From a virus (taxonomy: Duplodnaviria; Heunggongvirae; Uroviricota; Caudoviricetes): a DNA stretch of 4,254 bases. Made by a program: the position numbers and the translations under genes. Position 1 is the stretch's first letter. Each line of letters begins with the position of its first letter. The notes beneath the pieces are model-generated. The model did no database searches. It was not told the DNA's origin and saw only the letters and a list, made by a program, of their open reading frames with translations. The stretch lies in the IMG/VR virus record IMGVR_UViG_2531839233_000010; one strand, given 5' to 3'. Of the stretch, positions 2 through 4,254 are shown one piece after another.

Positions 2-166
2 TTACCTGTGACGGTAAAACTGCGCCTGACTGTGGCTGCACTCCTGCTGTTTCTGGTGGTGATGATGGATTTCACCAGCAGGATAATGTTGGTACTGACT
101 GATGGCGCTCTGGTCTGCGGCATTGTGGTATTGCTGTGGCCGATGATGAAAGAACAGAATGAATAA
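2..166 (+). CDS. 3' end of an upstream ORF (partial, start outside window); very hydrophobic C-terminus, product unknown
   Basis: Open frame from the window edge to TAA at 164-166, translating to ...LTVAALLLFLVVMMDFTSRIMLVLTDGALVCGIVVLLWPMMKEQNE with many CTG Leu codons. A second open frame (1-111, ...CDGKTAPDCGCTPAVSGGDDGFHQQDNVGTD, stop TGA 109-111) is also possible, so the frame is uncertain. By position a Q-type antiterminator gene would be expected here, but I cannot confirm that. Confidence 0.3.
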   Translation, partial: LPVTVKLRLTVAALLLFLVVMMDFTSRIMLVLTDGALVCGIVVLLWPMMKEQNE

Positions 167-169
167 TTC

Positions 170-196
170 TTGACTTTTTTGTTTACTGTTTATTAA
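170..196 (+). promoter_or_regulatory. Candidate sigma70 late promoter (pR'-like)
   Basis: TTGACT at 170-175 (same -35 hexamer as lambda pR'), 15-bp spacer, TATTAA at 191-196. It starts 4 bp after the upstream stop and sits about 175 nt upstream of a strong terminator, the geometry of lambda pR'-6S RNA-tR'. The short spacer and imperfect -10 keep confidence modest. Confidence 0.35.
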
Positions 197-352
197 AAAA
201 TCAACCGCATGGTGAATCCTCCTTGGAGGGGCTAAATGATCGAGTTTTAAGGGCACGTAGCGAGTTCTGTTTGATCATTGCAGAACTTAGCGGGAGGCGC
301 CATGCGTACATCACTAATGTTATTTCCTTCTATCATTTTCCTTGTGAGTTCT

Positions 353-379
353 GGCTGCGCATGGCGCGGCCTTTTTTTT
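353..379 (+). terminator. Rho-independent terminator (tR'-like, end of late leader transcript)
   Basis: Stem GGCTGCGC (353-360) pairs with GCGCGGCC (364-371): 8 bp including one G-U, loop ATG, followed directly by eight T (372-379). Confidence 0.7.
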
Positions 380-560
380 ATGACCTGCCACTGGCAGATG
401 GTCATCCTGTGATTTGATTCCGGTTCCGGCTTTTTAACTCTGTTCCTGTACACGGGAGAAATTCTATGTCGATTAATCGTTATGATATTGGTTACAAGAA
501 GTACCACGTATTGTGTTGAGATAGAAAGCATGGTGCCAGAGGTAAATGCAGCAGCATAAT

Positions 561-608
561 AAAAAAGAGCCAGCGCAGAAGAGAACGGGTAAAAGAGTCT
601 GCGCTGGC
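561..608 (-). terminator. Candidate rho-independent terminator for minus-strand transcription
   Basis: Perfect 11-bp inverted repeat GCCAGCGCAGA (569-579) / TCTGCGCTGGC (598-608) with an 18-nt loop. On the minus strand the hairpin is followed by TCTTTTTTATTAT (complement of 556-568); no T-tract follows on the plus strand. Confidence 0.45.
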
Positions 609-659
609 GTGGGGATATTCCCCGTGGAGAAATGATATGTAACACACATCGGGAACCTT

Positions 660-687
660 TCTATATAAACATTATCATTATTGTCAA
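660..687 (-). promoter_or_regulatory. Candidate minus-strand promoter facing the 561-608 terminator
   Basis: Minus strand reads TTGACA (complement of 682-687, perfect -35), 16-bp spacer, TATAGA (complement of 660-665). The -10 lacks the conserved final T, so this is weak. It would give a roughly 90-nt transcript ending at the 561-608 terminator. Confidence 0.25.
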
Positions 688-787
688 TCATAACAGTCAG
701 GTATTATGACGTTTATGCATCAGGGCCATCAGGAATTAACTGGTGGCTTTTTATTGTTGTCAGCTTCCGGATAACGGGAGACGGGGT

Positions 788-1003
788 ATGTACCAGATGG
801 AAAAAATAACAACAGGTGTGTCATACACCACGTCAGCGGTGGGGACGGGATACTGGCTACTGCAGTTGCTGGACAAAGTCTCCCCATCCCAGTGGGTGGC
901 AATAGGCGTATTGGGTAGCTTGGTGTTTGGCTTGCTGACGTATCTGACAAACCTTTATTTCAAGATTAAAGAAGATAAGCGTAAGGCTGCGAGAGGTGAA
1001 TAA
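788..1003 (+). CDS. S: Class II holin, phage 21 S21 pinholin family (71 aa; alternative start at 797 gives 68 aa)
   Basis: ORF ending TAA 1001-1003. Translation [71 protein letters not shown] closely matches the phage 21 S21 pinholin as I recall it (two TMDs, ...[21 protein letters not shown]-terminus). GGGAG at 776-780 lies 7 nt before ATG 788. Met1 and Met4 form a dual-start motif. The 743 start in the ORF track is upstream of the SD and unlikely. Confidence 0.9.
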
Positions 1004-1500
1004 TGTCGCCATCATTACGCAAGGCTGTTGCTGCTGCTATTGGTGGTGGGGCTGCTGCCATAGCGTCTGTGCTCATCACTGGTCCGAGTGGTGACGATGG
1101 CCTGGAAGGTGTCAGCTACATACCATACGAAGATATCGTTGGCGTATGGACTGTATGTCACGGACACACCGGAAAAGACATCATTCCCGGTAAAACGTAT
1201 ACCGAAGCAGAATGCAAAGCCCTCCTGAATAAAGACCTTGCCACGGTCGCCAGACAAATTAACCCGTACATCAAAGTCGATATACCGGAAACAACGCGCG
1301 GCGCTCTTTACTCGTTCGTTTACAACGTGGGCGCTGGTAATTTCAGAACATCGACGCTTCTTCGCAAAATAAACCAGGGTGATATCAAAGGCGCATGTGA
1401 TCAGCTACGGCGCTGGACATACGCTGGCGGTAAGCAATGGAAAGGGCTGATGACTCGCCGCGAGATTGAGCGTGAAGTCTGTTTGTGGGGGCAACAATGA
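1003..1500 (+). CDS. R: SAR endolysin (phage 21 R21-like, T4-lysozyme-type muramidase with N-terminal signal-anchor-release domain)
   Basis: 165 aa. N-terminal Gly/Ala-rich weakly hydrophobic segment ([20 protein letters not shown]) typical of a SAR domain. Lysozyme catalytic triad at the expected spacing (E35, D44, T50 in ...[23 protein letters not shown]...). Start ATG 1003-1005 overlaps the holin stop (TAATG). Confidence 0.93.
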
Positions 1501-1964
1501 GCAGAGTAACCGCGATTATCTCCGCTCTGGTTATCTGCATCATCGTCTGCCAGTCATGGGCGGTTAATCATTACCGTGATAACGCCATCGCCTATAAAGA
1601 ACAGCGTGATAAAAAAGTCAGTGAGCTGAAGCAGGCGACCGCCACCATTACTGACATGCAGCAGCGCCAGCGTGCTGCTGATGCACTCGATGCTAAATAC
1701 ACGAAGGAGTTAGCTGATGCGAAAGCTAAAAATGATGCTCTTCGGCGCAAGCTTGATAATGGTGGTCGGGTGTTCGTCAAAGGAAAATGCCCTGTGCCAT
1801 CCTCAGACGAAACCTCCAGCGCCTCCGGCATGGGCAATGATGCCACCGTCGAACTCTCTCCAGTTGCTGGACGAAACGTTCTCGGTATCCGGGACGGAAT
1901 TATCCGCGACCAAACAGCACTGAGAACGCTTCAGGAATACATCAGGACGCAATGCCTTCGATGA
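1497..1964 (+). CDS. Rz: Rz inner-membrane spanin (i-spanin)
   Basis: 155 aa from ATG 1497 (overlapping the endolysin stop TGA 1498-1500 as ATGA). N-terminal TMD ([15 protein letters not shown]) followed by a charged coiled-coil-like periplasmic domain. The 5' nucleotide sequence is near-identical to lambda Rz as I recall it. The ORF-track start at 1485 is a GTG extension. Confidence 0.9.
1717..1923 (+). CDS. Rz1: Rz1 outer-membrane lipoprotein spanin (o-spanin), embedded in +1 frame within Rz
   Basis: 68 aa: [44 protein letters not shown]... Signal peptide with lipobox VVGC and a Pro-rich mature region, as in lambda Rz1. AAGGAG sits 7 nt upstream of the ATG. Entirely nested inside Rz in a different frame. 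Confidence 0.85.
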
Positions 1965-2138
1965 TAGCGATAATTTTACTCATCATCCTTCACATCTGGC
2001 TCTGTAGACAGGGTGGTGCTCACTTCTGGAGTGAATCATGGTTAAACATCTCATTGCTGATGCTTGATATTGAGCATCTGGCGCGCGGTAAGGGGCTGCG
2101 TTGAGATAAGAGCCAGTCATTAAAAATACCTGGATTTA

Positions 2139-2162
2139 GCCTCGCATTCGCGGGGCTTTTTT
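2139..2162 (+). terminator. Rho-independent terminator downstream of the lysis cassette
   Basis: Stem GCCTCGC (2139-2145) pairs with GCGGGGC (2150-2156): 7 bp including one G-U, loop ATTC, followed by TTTTTT (2157-2162). Confidence 0.6.
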
Positions 2163-2174
2163 ATTGCCATTACA

Positions 2175-2200
2175 AAAGCCACTCCCTACAGAGTGGCTTT
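2175..2200 (-). terminator. Hairpin, possible weak terminator for minus-strand transcripts
   Basis: Perfect 10-bp inverted repeat AAAGCCACTC (2175-2184) / GAGTGGCTTT (2191-2200), 6-nt loop. The GC-rich core is flanked by an A-run on the left and T-run on the right, so the minus-strand RNA has the hairpin followed by UUUUGUAAU. Lies 13 bp after the plus-strand terminator. Confidence 0.35.
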
Positions 2201-2298
2201 GATAATGGCTTATACCCTACACGGGATAACTTAACTGATATCCCTTTTAACGGATAAAGGTATTCAAGCCTGACACATCATGCGCTGTATCGTCGCTG

Positions 2299-2363
2299 TA
2301 TTCCCGCATTAACCATGACCGTAGCCCGACGGGGAACTCCTTCTGCGCGAGTGTGCGGGAATA
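2299..2363. other. Long-range inverted repeat / structured element in the Rz-cos intergenic region
   Basis: TATTCCCGCA (2299-2308) is the exact reverse complement of TGCGGGAATA (2354-2363), enclosing a 45-nt GC-rich segment (2309-2353). The surrounding 2295-2460 stretch resembles, from memory, a lambda segment located between bor and cos. Confidence 0.4.
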
Positions 2364-2589
2364 ATCAAAAACGATGCACACCGGGTTTTTACCGCGCTAA
2401 TGATTCGCGGGTTTGTCCCTCATGCTCGCCAGTCCTGTGCGGGGGTGGAAGAAACAGGACACTCACACAGATTCTTGTGGGTCGATGCTATTCCTTTCTG
2501 GATTATCCCGATGCCATTCATGCAAGGGCTGTATCAGACGTTCGTCATGGCTTTCAGGCTGACGGCTCCTCCCGGTGGGGTGGCCTGCC

Positions 2590-2609
2590 ACGGGGCGGGA
2601 GCGTCGCGG
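2590..2609. other. Candidate cosN (terminase nicking site); predicted 12-nt cohesive end GGGCGGGAGCGT at 2593-2604
   Basis: ACGGGGCGGGAGCGTCGCGG matches the lambda cos context ACG|GGGCGGCGACCT|CGCGGG at the 9 left and 6 right flanking positions, with the central bases differing. It lies about 175 bp upstream of the Nu1-like gene start, as in lambda (cosN to Nu1 ATG about 190 bp). Confidence 0.5.
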
Positions 2610-2622
2610 AAAAAGGCTAGTT

Positions 2623-2665
2623 TTTGCATTTTTATCGGCCACCATCATCTTTGCATCTTATTGAT
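2623..2665 (+). repeat. Direct repeats TTTGCATYTT(T)AT, candidate cosB-like small-terminase binding elements
   Basis: TTTGCATTTTTAT (2623-2635) and TTTGCATCTTAT (2650-2661) lie 27 bp apart in the AT-rich stretch between the candidate cosN and the small-terminase gene. Confidence 0.3.
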
Positions 2666-2778
2666 TATTAATGGTTATTTGTTTTTTGTATGTCGAATTG
2701 AGTGTTTTTTGTTCGACATCGAACGCGTTTTCTTAAAGTTGTTCGCACGATGCATGTTTAAAGCTCTCCGGAGGAAAT

Positions 2779-3270
2779 ATGGATCATGAGTTGAAAAACC
2801 TGGTGCTGAATATTAATCAACTGGCGGCTTTATCTGGTCTGCACCGCCAGACTGTCGTGGCAAGACTGAAAAACATTCGTCCCGCTGGTGGACATGACAA
2901 ACTCAAGCTATACCGGTTGACCGATATTCTGACTGAATTTATGGGGTTACCACCGCCGGTTGCTGAGGGCGAAATGGATCCACATGAACGCAAAGCCTGG
3001 TATCAGTCTGAACGTGAGCGTCTTAAGTTCGAACAGGAAACGGCACAACTCATTCCGGCCAGTGATGTCAGACGGGAGTTTGCCATCTGGGCAAAAGCGG
3101 TCGTGCAGGTGCTGGAGACATTACCGGATATTCTGGAACGTGACTGTGGTCTGCAGCCTGCCGCTGTGAGCCGTGTTCAGTCCATTATTGATGATCTGCG
3201 CGATCAGATAGCCCTGCGGGTGACCGAAGCAGGTGCGGATGATGAGGAGGAATTACAGCAGGAGGAGTAA
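2779..3270 (+). CDS. Terminase small subunit (Nu1-like DNA packaging protein, N-terminal HTH)
   Basis: 163 aa. GGAGG at 2767-2771 lies 7 nt before ATG 2779. The N-terminus LNINQLAALSGLHRQTVVARL follows the lambda Nu1 helix-turn-helix pattern (VNKKQLADIFGASIRTIQNW), and the C-terminus is acidic. Position is immediately upstream of the large terminase with a TAATG overlap at 3268-3272. Similarity to Nu1 is by pattern, not high identity. Confidence 0.7.
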   Translation: MDHELKNLVLNINQLAALSGLHRQTVVARLKNIRPAGGHDKLKLYRLTDILTEFMGLPPPVAEGEMDPHERKAWYQSERERLKFEQETAQLIPASDVRREFAIWAKAVVQVLETLPDILERDCGLQPAAVSRVQSIIDDLRDQIALRVTEAGADDEEELQQEE

Positions 3271-4254
3271 TGCTGAATCAGGAAACCGCAAAGGCAGCAC
3301 GAACCGATTCAGGTTATATCCTTCGCGCACCGAGACGAATGCGGGTTGCTGATGCCGTTGCTCAGTATATGCGGGTGCCCATGGGGGCCGGGAACTCAGT
3401 CCCGTGGGATCCGCTGGTGGCACCGTATGTTATTGAGCCGATGAACTGCCTGGCCTCGCGTGAATACGACGCAGTGATATTTGTTGGCCCGGCACGAACC
3501 GGCAAGACTATCGGCCTGATTGACGGCTGGGTGATTTACAACGTGATTTGCGATCCTGCGGATATGCTGATCATTCAGATGACGGAGGAAAAAGCCCGCG
3601 AACACTCCAAAAAACGACTCGCCAGAACGTTTCGCGTCAGCCCGGAAGTGGTCAGTCGCCTGAGTCCGAACAAAAATGACAACAACGTTTATGACAGAAC
3701 ATTCCTTGCTGGCAACTACCTGAAAATCGGCTGGCCGTCAGTCAATATCATGTCCTCATCAGATTATAAATGCGTGGCGCTGACGGATTATGACCGTTTT
3801 CCGGAAGATATTGATGGCGAGGGGGATGCCTTCTCTCTTGCCTCAAAACGTACCACCACATTTATGTCCAGTGGTATGACGCTGGTGGAGAGTTCCCCCG
3901 GCAGGGATGTGAAGGATGTGAAATGGCGACGGACTTCACCGCATGAGGCTCCACCAACCACGGGGATACTGTCGCTCTATAACCGTGGCGATCGCCGTCG
4001 CTGGTACTGGCCCTGTCCACACTGTGGTGAGTATTTTCAGCCCTGCGGCGATGTGGTTGCTGGTTTCCGTGATATTGCCGATCCCGTGCTGGCAAGTGAG
4101 GCGGCTTATATTCAGTGTCCTTCCTGTTCAGGACGGATTATGCCTGAACAAAAACGTGAGCTGAACGGACGTGGGGTCTGGTTGCGGGATGCTATCACCC
4201 GTATGCTGATGCGCATGATGGGTATCAAAACCGATATCGTGGTTAGCGGCTCTT
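3270..4254 (+). CDS. Terminase large subunit, lambda gpA family (partial; 3' end beyond window)
   Basis: Uninterrupted frame from ATG 3270 to the window end (328 codons, checked codon by codon; not in the supplied ORF track). Walker A P-loop VIFVGPARTGKT. Cys cluster WPCPHCGEYFQPCGD...CPSCSG resembles the gpA zinc-finger-like motif (lambda ...ACPHCGEE...). Confidence 0.9.
   Translation, partial: MLNQETAKAARTDSGYILRAPRRMRVADAVAQYMRVPMGAGNSVPWDPLVAPYVIEPMNCLASREYDAVIFVGPARTGKTIGLIDGWVIYNVICDPADMLIIQMTEEKAREHSKKRLARTFRVSPEVVSRLSPNKNDNNVYDRTFLAGNYLKIGWPSVNIMSSSDYKCVALTDYDRFPEDIDGEGDAFSLASKRTTTFMSSGMTLVESSPGRDVKDVKWRRTSPHEAPPTTGILSLYNRGDRRRWYWPCPHCGEYFQPCGDVVAGFRDIADPVLASEAAYIQCPSCSGRIMPEQKRELNGRGVWLRDAITRMLMRMMGIKTDIVVSGS

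Follow-up and report, generated by a model that had tools for sequence, protein, structure and literature searches.

Between Rz and cos, bacteriophage lambda and the Escherichia coli K-12 prophage DLP12 carry bor, a textbook moron, together with p78/ybcV; in phages of the P22/phi191/ES18 type, Rz is followed by a terminator, the gene rha and the terminase genes. Phage polycistronic transcripts also hold cis-acting RNA structures, among them the RNase III processing hairpins of T7, sib of lambda and put of HK022. The mosaicism of lambdoid phages has been described in terms of morons and "boundary" sequences (Juhala et al. 2000, cited in PMC4104026; PMC3594210). Here we analyze the corresponding interval, positions 1965-2778, of a 4,254-nucleotide (nt) stretch of viral DNA (IMG/VR record IMGVR_UViG_2531839233_000010; the whole stretch is called the window below). 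The window is part of prophage Sp3 of E. coli O157:H7 Sakai: from 42 to 4191 it matches O157:H7 chromosomes with 99.9% identity, and a window position plus 901,019 gives the Sakai position. Two features of this interval are our main subjects, a 44-nt hairpin (hairpin 2) and a conserved element of 181 nt. An earlier note on this DNA had read the region as an Rz-to-cos interval that lacks bor and holds hairpins instead.

The junction between the lysis and packaging modules

The interval is probably a non-coding junction at which the lysis module gives way to the packaging module in the late operon of a lambdoid prophage, as comparison with related phages suggests. It consists of four modules (M1 to M4; Table 1) that circulate independently among lambdoid phages, all with plus-strand (late-operon) polarity, and its homology breakpoints, at 1929, 2162-2166, 2191, 2253, 2281, 2388 and 2460, recur at identical bases across unrelated phages. 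M1, which runs from the last 12 codons of Rz through a 50-codon open reading frame (ORF) to an intrinsic terminator (hairpin 1), is found combined with varied Rz types and varied terminases; its homology limits are 1929 and 2162/2164 in five relatives (L187, L188, L100, L099 and L050). Directly 3' of the T-run of the terminator lies a mosaic junction, beyond which relatives carry at least three different sequences. In HK97-like and P22-like phages M2 is also found by itself.

The first 21 nt of M3 are the end of an rha-type gene. The Rha coding sequence of phi191 ends at the base equivalent to window 2273 (L028 1521), as do those of L010 and L188, and in phi191 and L010 the shared 21 nt are followed by the element. 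L188 has the flanks of the window (to 2162 and from 2253) around an intact rha (Pfam Phage_pRha), which stands in place of the 90-base-pair (bp) hairpin module, and in ES18 a putative terminator after Rz/Rz1 is followed by rha and then by the element. Compared with these phages, Sp3 has rha reduced to its last seven codons and the rest replaced by the 90-bp hairpin module. Other phages have other cargo here: bor lies on the minus strand directly left of the element (window 2281) in lambda, HK630 and K-12 DLP12, the Rz stop codon adjoins the element in VT2-Sakai, and further phages have different genes at this place. Judged by these alignments, the 2162/2253 boundary, and more generally the left edge of the element at 2281, is a recombination junction with phage-specific cargo, which is rha (plus strand), bor (minus strand), another gene or Rz directly. 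In Sp3 the junction holds only M2, as non-coding filler, and therefore no bor is needed to explain the gap.

The absence of bor claimed in the earlier note held up and extends to remnants of the gene. A tblastn search of the window with lambda Bor gave a best E value of 1.1 over 9 residues, which is chance level, and blastn with the lambda bor cassette returned only chance matches of 9-19 nt (E of at least 0.8 overall). The ORF list contains no minus-strand ORF of at least 60 amino acids (aa) in 1965-2460, where a lambda Bor-type product would have about 97 aa, and the PhoP-box-like repeat of the lambda bor cassette, TGTTTAGGGTTTGTTTA, has no counterpart in 1965-2780. The alignment with lambda and DLP12 that the note had proposed places bor in those genomes directly left of the element and finds it absent here. 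It does not bear out a clean deletion of bor, since the gene trace left in this lineage is that of rha. The proposal of an unoccupied or deleted insertion slot bounded by terminators stood in part: a variable cargo position is real, given rha in L188 and bor in lambda and DLP12, but only its left boundary is a terminator, and the slot holds M2 and a relic of rha rather than of bor.

Sp3 resembles the lambda/DLP12 region in late-operon position, in its homology to the element and in the cosQ- and cosN-like sites downstream, but it differs in lacking the bor ORF, the PhoP-box-like promoter region and homologs of p78/p79, in having M1, M2 and the rha relic left of the element, and in having a small terminase subunit of the DUF1441 type rather than Nu1. 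Like morons and boundary sequences, it shows variable cargo amid conserved late genes, with junctions that recur in many phages. Its slot, however, has no gene-promoter-terminator unit, and its junction sequence shows an RNA-type covariation (below) that the moron and linker concepts do not predict. We also considered a moron within 2163-2280 and rejected it, finding there neither a gene-sized ORF with a family match nor a promoter.

Sp3 has no repressor, replication genes or intact integrase, and does not circularize, replicate or get packaged (PMC2669165). Since it cannot excise, replicate or package, the hairpin and element in Sp3 itself are probably inert relics, and the combination of no bor with hairpins, as first stated, is ordinary lambdoid mosaicism in a dead prophage. 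The gap is nonetheless made of reusable non-coding modules with exact junctions, and is a clean example of the swapping of rha and bor cargo at one late-operon position. Annotation pipelines leave such DNA blank or fill it with unsupported ORFs, some of which cross the putative cos. Two ORFs of this sort on the plus strand, of 101 aa (2315-2620) and 129 aa (2400-2789), were rejected as genes, as both run through the non-coding element and across the putative cosN; GenBank records of phages likewise annotate "hypothetical protein" ORFs through the element and across the cosN-like site (L002 2909-3157; L001 3084-3326). Within 2163-2280 the only ORF of at least 30 aa is one of 44 aa on the minus strand (2247-2381), which we also rejected: it has no family match, crosses the rha relic and enters the indel-bearing non-coding element. 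Against Pfam and PHROGs, the ORFs of the interval, all of which were searched, matched nothing but PHROG families assembled from these very ORF predictions, which are themselves unverified.

The 181-nt element and the long hairpin

The element fills M3 from 2281 to 2461, and both of its edges are sharp mosaic junctions. A MAFFT alignment of 53 distinct copies, made from sequence only, was folded with RNAalifold. In the consensus, helices P0 and P1 and an apical CCC/GGG pairing form one long composite hairpin, which is followed by a small hairpin (P2) and by a terminal hairpin (P3) with a highly conserved 15-nt loop, UGCGGGGGUGGAAGAAA. Across the alignment pairing holds in 97.5% of the cells, with compensatory double changes at nine pairs. 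Five measures were compared with 500 shuffles of the columns, none of which reached any of them, and slid partners were paired in 34-52% of cells. G-U pairs on the plus strand account for 186 cells vs 11 cells with A-C, and the alifold energy is -31.5 kcal/mol on the plus strand vs -9.6 kcal/mol on the minus strand. A further collection of copies, made with a P3 pattern, added wobble-consistent changes in P1. Pairing is thus kept by compensatory and wobble changes on one strand, the pattern of a structured cis-acting RNA element. Indels of 1 nt and 10 nt in the alignment exclude a conserved ORF, so the element is non-coding; no Rfam family matches it, and its final hairpin lacks a U-tract.

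Copies are present in 504 phage records, including lambda, HK630, Shiga toxin (Stx) 1 and Stx2 phages, ES18 and POCJ13, and in 4593 of 5426 complete E. coli genomes (85%; median 2, maximum 11 copies), where they are almost always unannotated. The polarity of the element is fixed. In 120 of 137 distinct contexts Rz or an endolysin gene lies upstream on the same strand, with a single context in which it lies otherwise; for terminase genes, a downstream position on the same strand is seen in 49 contexts and no other arrangement occurs. The downstream neighbor is cos (at 45-130 nt), a pac-type terminase gene (at about 115 nt) or, in lambda, p78. The lambda copy lies at about 46,862-47,057, between bor and p78; over 2281-2388 the window shares 84-85% identity with the DNA immediately 5' of bor in lambda-type phages and K-12 DLP12, and P3 is recognizable in lambda. 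A scan of one genome per species added no diversity, as nearly all matches outside Escherichia came from lambda control DNA. At loci L029-L062, many supposed genomes of unrelated bacteria (Pseudomonas, Cohnella, Flavobacterium and various metagenome-assembled genomes) have contigs of either about 48.5 kb or about 3.5 kb with sequence exactly that of lambda, evidently control-DNA contamination of public assemblies.

Several observations weigh against reading the element as a functional RNA. Its fold as a single sequence is no better than that of shuffles (z of -0.41 on the plus strand and -0.21 on the minus strand); single-sequence thermodynamics being non-significant, the case for the element therefore lies in covariation. 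Most of its stems are invariant, with a mean identity of 74% per column, and recombinational homogenization may account for part of the apparent conservation. Nor do the cells each stand for a separate event; by pairs, about 17 show G-U states vs about 6 with A-C. In the first collection the search pattern prescribed some bases in the 3' arms of both P0 and P1, a bias that the P3-based set relieved in part. Copies of only half the element also occur: K-12 DLP12 has just the 5' 108 nt, and L190 and L202 have just the 3' half. A role at the DNA level is possible, given that the annotation of lambda places a minus-strand promoter within its copy, and it is the pattern of substitutions only that points to function as RNA.

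One can accordingly ask whether the element and the long hairpin are purely DNA-level features, such as recombination linkers, protein-binding sites or promoter DNA of the region upstream of bor. The sharp mosaic edges and many different neighbors of the element would suit such a role, as would the promoter annotation in lambda and the lack of a thermodynamic signal. In experiments, Sakai prophages have recombined with one another in the homologous stx-to-nu1 region (PMC2669165). On one viral contig (L069, about 5050-6195), two copies of the element 950 bp apart flank a plus-strand ORF of more than 126 aa, which looks like cargo inserted through recombination between element copies. Recombination alone, however, does not predict the nine pairs with compensatory double changes that no shuffle matched, nor the excess of G-U over A-C, nor the 22 kcal/mol difference between the strands in the consensus fold; a linker does not require a fixed late-operon polarity; and the promoter hexamers are not the conserved part of the element. 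On this balance we consider a purely DNA-level role unlikely, though a serious rival. The promoter annotated in HK630 was also tried as the cause of the conservation and rejected, its hexamers being the least conserved part. From the lambda CRISPRi essentiality map, in which guides against bor and p78 score as non-essential, we drew no inference about the element: we take these guides to have been designed for the minus-strand genes, which is our own reading and not a statement of that paper.

Hairpin 2 has a plus-strand bias as well. The inverted repeat (2166-2184/2191-2209) has 19-nt arms that form 7 bp, a conserved 2x2 internal loop (CA/GA) and 10 bp, closed by a 6-nt loop. Folding gives -26.8 kcal/mol for the plus strand and -30.1 kcal/mol for the minus strand (z of about -7.5; 0 of 200 shuffles as good). 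Twenty-four sequence variants keep a plus-strand fold of -19 to -26 kcal/mol, whereas the minus-strand fold falls to as little as -7.6 kcal/mol; some of their changes are compensatory, such as G-C in place of A-T in the outer stem or an altered inner stem, and many others produce G-U on the plus strand. Because the variants keep the plus fold only, the hairpin is, on the evidence of these substitutions, selected as a plus-strand structure. In several phages a plus-strand gene precedes the hairpin so closely that the hairpin begins at its stop codon or right behind it, and the record of phage Ayreon annotates it as a plus-strand terminator. Against this stand the slightly better minus-strand fold of the Sp3 copy and the U4 tract found there. 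The terminator scan flagged hairpin 2 on neither strand. Its plus-strand tail is UUAUAC; on the minus strand UUUUGU comes behind the inner stem, but this tract belongs to the outer stem. The second hairpin of the earlier note, at 2175-2200, does exist, but that span is only the inner stem of the full hairpin, and its reading as a terminator of minus-strand transcripts finds no support in the 24 variants or in the position of the hairpin behind plus-strand genes.

By analogy with lambda, plus-strand transcription without the antiterminator Q would stop at tR' (353-371) or at 2162, and Q-modified polymerase would read through the terminator, so that hairpin 2 and the element would be transcribed within a late mRNA of about 25 kb. 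There they could function in cis, as structures of this Q-dependent RNA itself, most likely as determinants of processing or stability, for instance as structures of the RNase III type or ones that protect 5' or 3' ends. Such structures would uncouple the lysis mRNA from the mRNA for packaging and morphogenesis. We tentatively propose that the element and the 44-nt hairpin upstream might together be an undescribed, functionally important cis-acting RNA that directs processing, stabilization or translation of the packaging/morphogenesis mRNA; any specific RNA function for either part is a speculative assignment.

The closest described parallels to such an RNA would be the T7, sib and put structures, which are likewise imperfect hairpins, about 20 bp long and interrupted by internal loops, placed between gene blocks on the sense strand of an antiterminated transcript. 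The element differs from them in having no sequence or covariance-model similarity in Rfam and in also occurring upstream of pac-type terminases. It is widespread, strand-specific and covarying, and sits in the late operon of lambda itself without an Rfam family or annotation. If it is a functional RNA, it has been overlooked in lambda and in about 85% of E. coli genomes, it would serve annotators as a marker of the boundary between lysis and packaging modules, and it would raise a testable question about the balance between lysis and morphogenesis mRNA in lambdoid and Shiga toxin phages.

Table 1. Features of the window and the basis on which each was assigned.
Feature	Position	Strand	Basis or content
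Class II holin	788-1003		ORF list, annotation, Pfam
Lysozyme RrrD	1003-1500		ORF list, annotation, Pfam
Rz (i-spanin) gene, left anchor of the interval	1497-1964	+	ORF list; PGAP "lysis protein"; Sakai ECs_0820/ECs_0821
Rz1 lipoprotein ORF, embedded in Rz	1717-1923	+	ORF list, annotation
Module M1	1929-2162	+	Rz 3' end, 50-codon ORF, terminator
50-aa ORF, ECs_0822 / WP_001139679.1 / phrog_11822	1952-2104	+	PGAP, GenBank phage records, PHROGs
Predicted intrinsic terminator (hairpin 1), closes lysis cassette	2138-2162	+	Terminator scan, folding, conservation
Module M2	2166-2252	+	44-nt hairpin and weak hairpin
Long conserved hairpin (hairpin 2), 44 nt	2166-2209	+	Inverted repeat, folding, variants, context
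Hairpin 3, GGGATA/TATCCC and T4	2223-2248	+	Folding; co-conserved with hairpin 2
Module M3	2253-2461	+	Last seven rha codons fused to 181-nt element
rha-type gene 3' relic, GAT AAA GGT ATT CAA GCC TGA (DKGIQA-stop)	2253-2273	+	rha ends of phi191, L010, L188
Conserved structured element	2281-2461	+	Alignment, RNAalifold consensus, covariation
Element helix P0	2287-2293/2371-2377	+	RNAalifold
Degenerate homolog of the HK630 minus-strand promoter upstream of bor	2295-2321	-	HK630 feature (L006 2015-2041); alignments
Element helix P1	2299-2305/2357-2363 and 2307-2310/2350-2353	+	RNAalifold
Element apical pairing CCC/GGG	2325-2327/2332-2334	+	RNAalifold
Element helix P2	2392-2396/2406-2410	+	RNAalifold
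Element helix P3	2432-2438/2454-2460	+	RNAalifold
Module M4	2462-2778	+	cosQ-like, cosN-like and cosB-type sequence upstream of DUF1441 terminase gene
cosQ-like heptamer GGCTCCT	2564-2570	+	Right-flank comparison; one mismatch from GGGTCCT
cosN-like 12-mer GGGCGGGAGCGT, flanks ACG and CGCGG	2593-2604	+	Sequence; comparison with relatives
Small terminase subunit (DUF1441), right anchor of the interval	2779-3270	+	Pfam PF07278, 4.6e-44; annotations
Large terminase subunit	from 3270	+	Annotations

Terminators and the reading as short transcripts

The plus-strand terminator that the earlier note had placed at 2139-2162 is well supported as a prediction, with the GC-rich stem-loop and U-tract of an intrinsic terminator. 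The stem GCCTCGC/GCGGGGC (2139-2156) encloses the loop ATTC and is followed by six T residues (2157-2162); the scan reports 8 pairs, 6 of them GC, a 4-nt loop and the tail TTTTTATTGC, and the fold reaches -14.7 kcal/mol (z of -2.67). All 22 DNA variants of M1 keep it, and the sole change in the stem, C2145T, is compatible with wobble pairing. The third hairpin of that note, at 2223-2248, is present with its T4 tract, but it is weak: at -8.3 kcal/mol (z of -2.1; 4 of 200 shuffles as good) it does not by itself go beyond chance. A 6-bp stem with 3 GC pairs, a 10-nt loop and only four T residues fall short of an intrinsic terminator, and the scan did not report it. Its sequence is conserved, with very little variation, wherever M2 occurs.

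The earlier note had also offered the interval as a source of short non-coding transcripts. A particular form of this idea is a minus-strand RNA of about 115 nt that would start near 2290, at the homolog of a promoter for bor, and stop at the second hairpin, which would make the locus a bor-less promoter-terminator cassette or a small RNA (sRNA) gene. The HK630 annotation does put a minus-strand promoter at the homologous site, the inner stem of hairpin 2 is followed on that strand by UUUUGU with a whole-hairpin energy of -30.1 kcal/mol, and sRNAs are encoded elsewhere in the prophages of this strain. However, the hexamers, TGGACA-15-TACAAT in HK630, are CGGTCA-15-TACAGC here, and most Stx-phage copies are degenerate too: their -10 sequence, TACAGC or TACGGT, lacks the consensus final T or central bases. 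A consensus scan for sigma-70-like promoters found none on either strand in 1965-2460, the variants of hairpin 2 preserve the plus-strand rather than the minus-strand fold, and in true bor cassettes a separate, PhoP-box-like promoter region separates the element from bor, with no equivalent here. Every Rfam sRNA family stays below threshold, and the supplement of the Sakai Hfq-CRAC study lists no candidate at the coordinates of the interval. A minus-strand RNA of this kind is therefore highly improbable, and with the sole promoter candidate degenerate the short-transcript proposal was not borne out. A free-standing sRNA gene anywhere in the interval was rejected on similar grounds: there is no promoter in 1965-2460, the homolog of the bor promoter is degenerate, and the element ends without a U-tract.

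The bor cassette of lambda and HK630 (L006, about 1925-1945, minus strand) has TGTTTAGGGTTTGTTTA as a direct repeat between the element and the bor ATG, a box that we take to be PhoP-dependent. The promoter annotated in HK630 lies further upstream than this repeat, inside the element; since the two lie at separate places, bor may have two promoters.

Rfam 15, a check that the earlier note had suggested, was searched with the whole window and, at permissive thresholds, with 1940-2480, and every match in the interval was below threshold and at chance level. STnc560, an Hfq-binding sRNA of Salmonella, matches 2048-2228 on the plus strand with 22.7 bits (threshold 55); its model likewise has two parts, a terminator hairpin with a U-run and, behind it, another long hairpin, and the resemblance may mark an analogous Salmonella prophage junction. 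Matches to mir-458, AbsR28 and ST7-OT4_3 were dismissed as far below threshold and biologically implausible. The interval contains no tRNA, tmRNA or tandem repeats, and in the literature we found nothing on ECs0822/0823 or on an sRNA between a lysis cassette and terminase genes.

Prophages of enterohemorrhagic and enteropathogenic E. coli encode sRNAs (the anti-sRNAs AsxR and AgvB, Esr41, PasD/STnc100) that, like the features described here, are non-coding RNAs or candidates at conserved lambdoid positions, and the window has weak homologs of two of them. These sRNAs lie between PR' and the holin gene (177-648) and have promoters and terminators of their own, whereas the features of the interval have neither. 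The STnc100 match, at 177-382 on the plus strand (37.7 bits, threshold 47), ends in the strong tR'-like terminator at 353-371, which is followed by T8, and the Esr41 match is at 559-648 on the minus strand (32.3 bits, threshold 102). The two correspond to a convergent pair of sRNAs already described downstream of PR' in Sp3 and further O157 prophages; PasD, to which STnc100 is related, is located near Q and lpxR. Other known prophage sRNAs, namely svsR at the 3' end of cI and Pas, AsxR and AgvB upstream of the holin gene, were set aside as candidates for the interval, their positions not fitting.

The 50-codon ORF, the cos-like sites and the window ends

The claim that the interval has no convincing ORF is defensible but not established, as annotators call a 50-aa ORF at 1952-2104 whose coding status is unproven. 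This ORF overlaps the Rz stop by four codons and is preceded by AGGA 4 nt 5' of its ATG; it matches its PHROG at 4.5e-35 and has no Pfam match. Its 63 homologs, nearly all from E. coli, are 62-96% identical, mostly at least 75%, and in 20 that were aligned the frame is open except for one frameshifted copy (P0063) and one with a divergent C terminus. In 22 distinct DNA variants the variable sites are spread over codon positions as 12/7/13, and unique codon changes are 10 synonymous to 25 non-synonymous, compared with 12/21 and 7/26 in the other two frames; site variability is 23%, vs 22% in the adjacent non-coding DNA. Together, the codon-position and synonymous/non-synonymous tests neither support nor exclude coding.

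It may be, then, that the ORF is a true gene of the lysis cassette for a small membrane protein, that its translation is coupled to that of Rz, and that the terminator at 2138-2162 is its own. The frame is open at full length in nearly all 63 homologs and free of indels and stops across the 22 variants, whereas the adjacent non-coding stretch has indels; the AGGA is suitably placed ahead of the ATG, the hydrophobic N-terminal segment is the best-conserved part, the ORF is constantly accompanied by the Rz end and the terminator, and both PGAP and phage annotators call it. A coding gene should nevertheless show a third-position excess, which is absent, and a synonymous/non-synonymous ratio better than that of the other two frames, which it does not have; it varies as much as the flanking non-coding DNA, has a frameshifted variant and no Pfam family, and its homologs are almost wholly confined to E. 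coli. We consider a real protein a reasonable minority view, somewhat less probable than a non-coding stretch.

The earlier note had spoken of an Rz-to-cos interval and of about 815 bp after Rz with no convincing ORF. The distance from Rz to the cos-like sites is about 600 bp, as these lie at 2564-2604 and not at the terminase ATG. The GGCTCCT heptamer, which we presume from work on lambda by the Feiss laboratory to be cosQ, stands 22 nt before ACG|GGGCGGGAGCGT|CGCGG, and the terminase ATG follows 175 nt further on, making this a putative cos; the lambda counterpart reads ACG|GGGCGGCGACCT|CGCGG, and in a lambda-type cos the cosQ heptamer precedes the 12-nt cosN by about 23 nt, with cosB and the small terminase gene behind them. 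L010 and L068 have the lambda-type cos, and L001, L067 and L129 share the cosN variant of the window. The heptamer is GGCTCCT in the window, in Sakai and in strain 10671, and GGGTCCT in the close relatives L001, L003, L067 and L129 and in lambda-type cos; the change is possibly inactivating, in keeping with a defective Sp3. Two public records of relatives end nearby at different positions, equivalent to window 2587 and 2753. The record of phage Ayreon places the start of a "putative late gene regulator", which has a zinc-finger-like motif (CxxCxGxG), immediately right of the element; the Ayreon sequence there departs from that of the window at the position of the putative cosN.

Neither end of the window belongs to Sp3. 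At the left end, bases 1-41 diverge from all O157 copies, with a few more mismatches at 49-56. At the right end, 4175-4254 is 97.5% identical to yfjD, a chromosomal gene, and because of this yfjD sequence the reading frame of the large terminase subunit is altered from 4192. The junction between the terminase gene and yfjD is found in no complete E. coli genome of the collection searched, and the right end of the window is either a chimera or a rare rearrangement.

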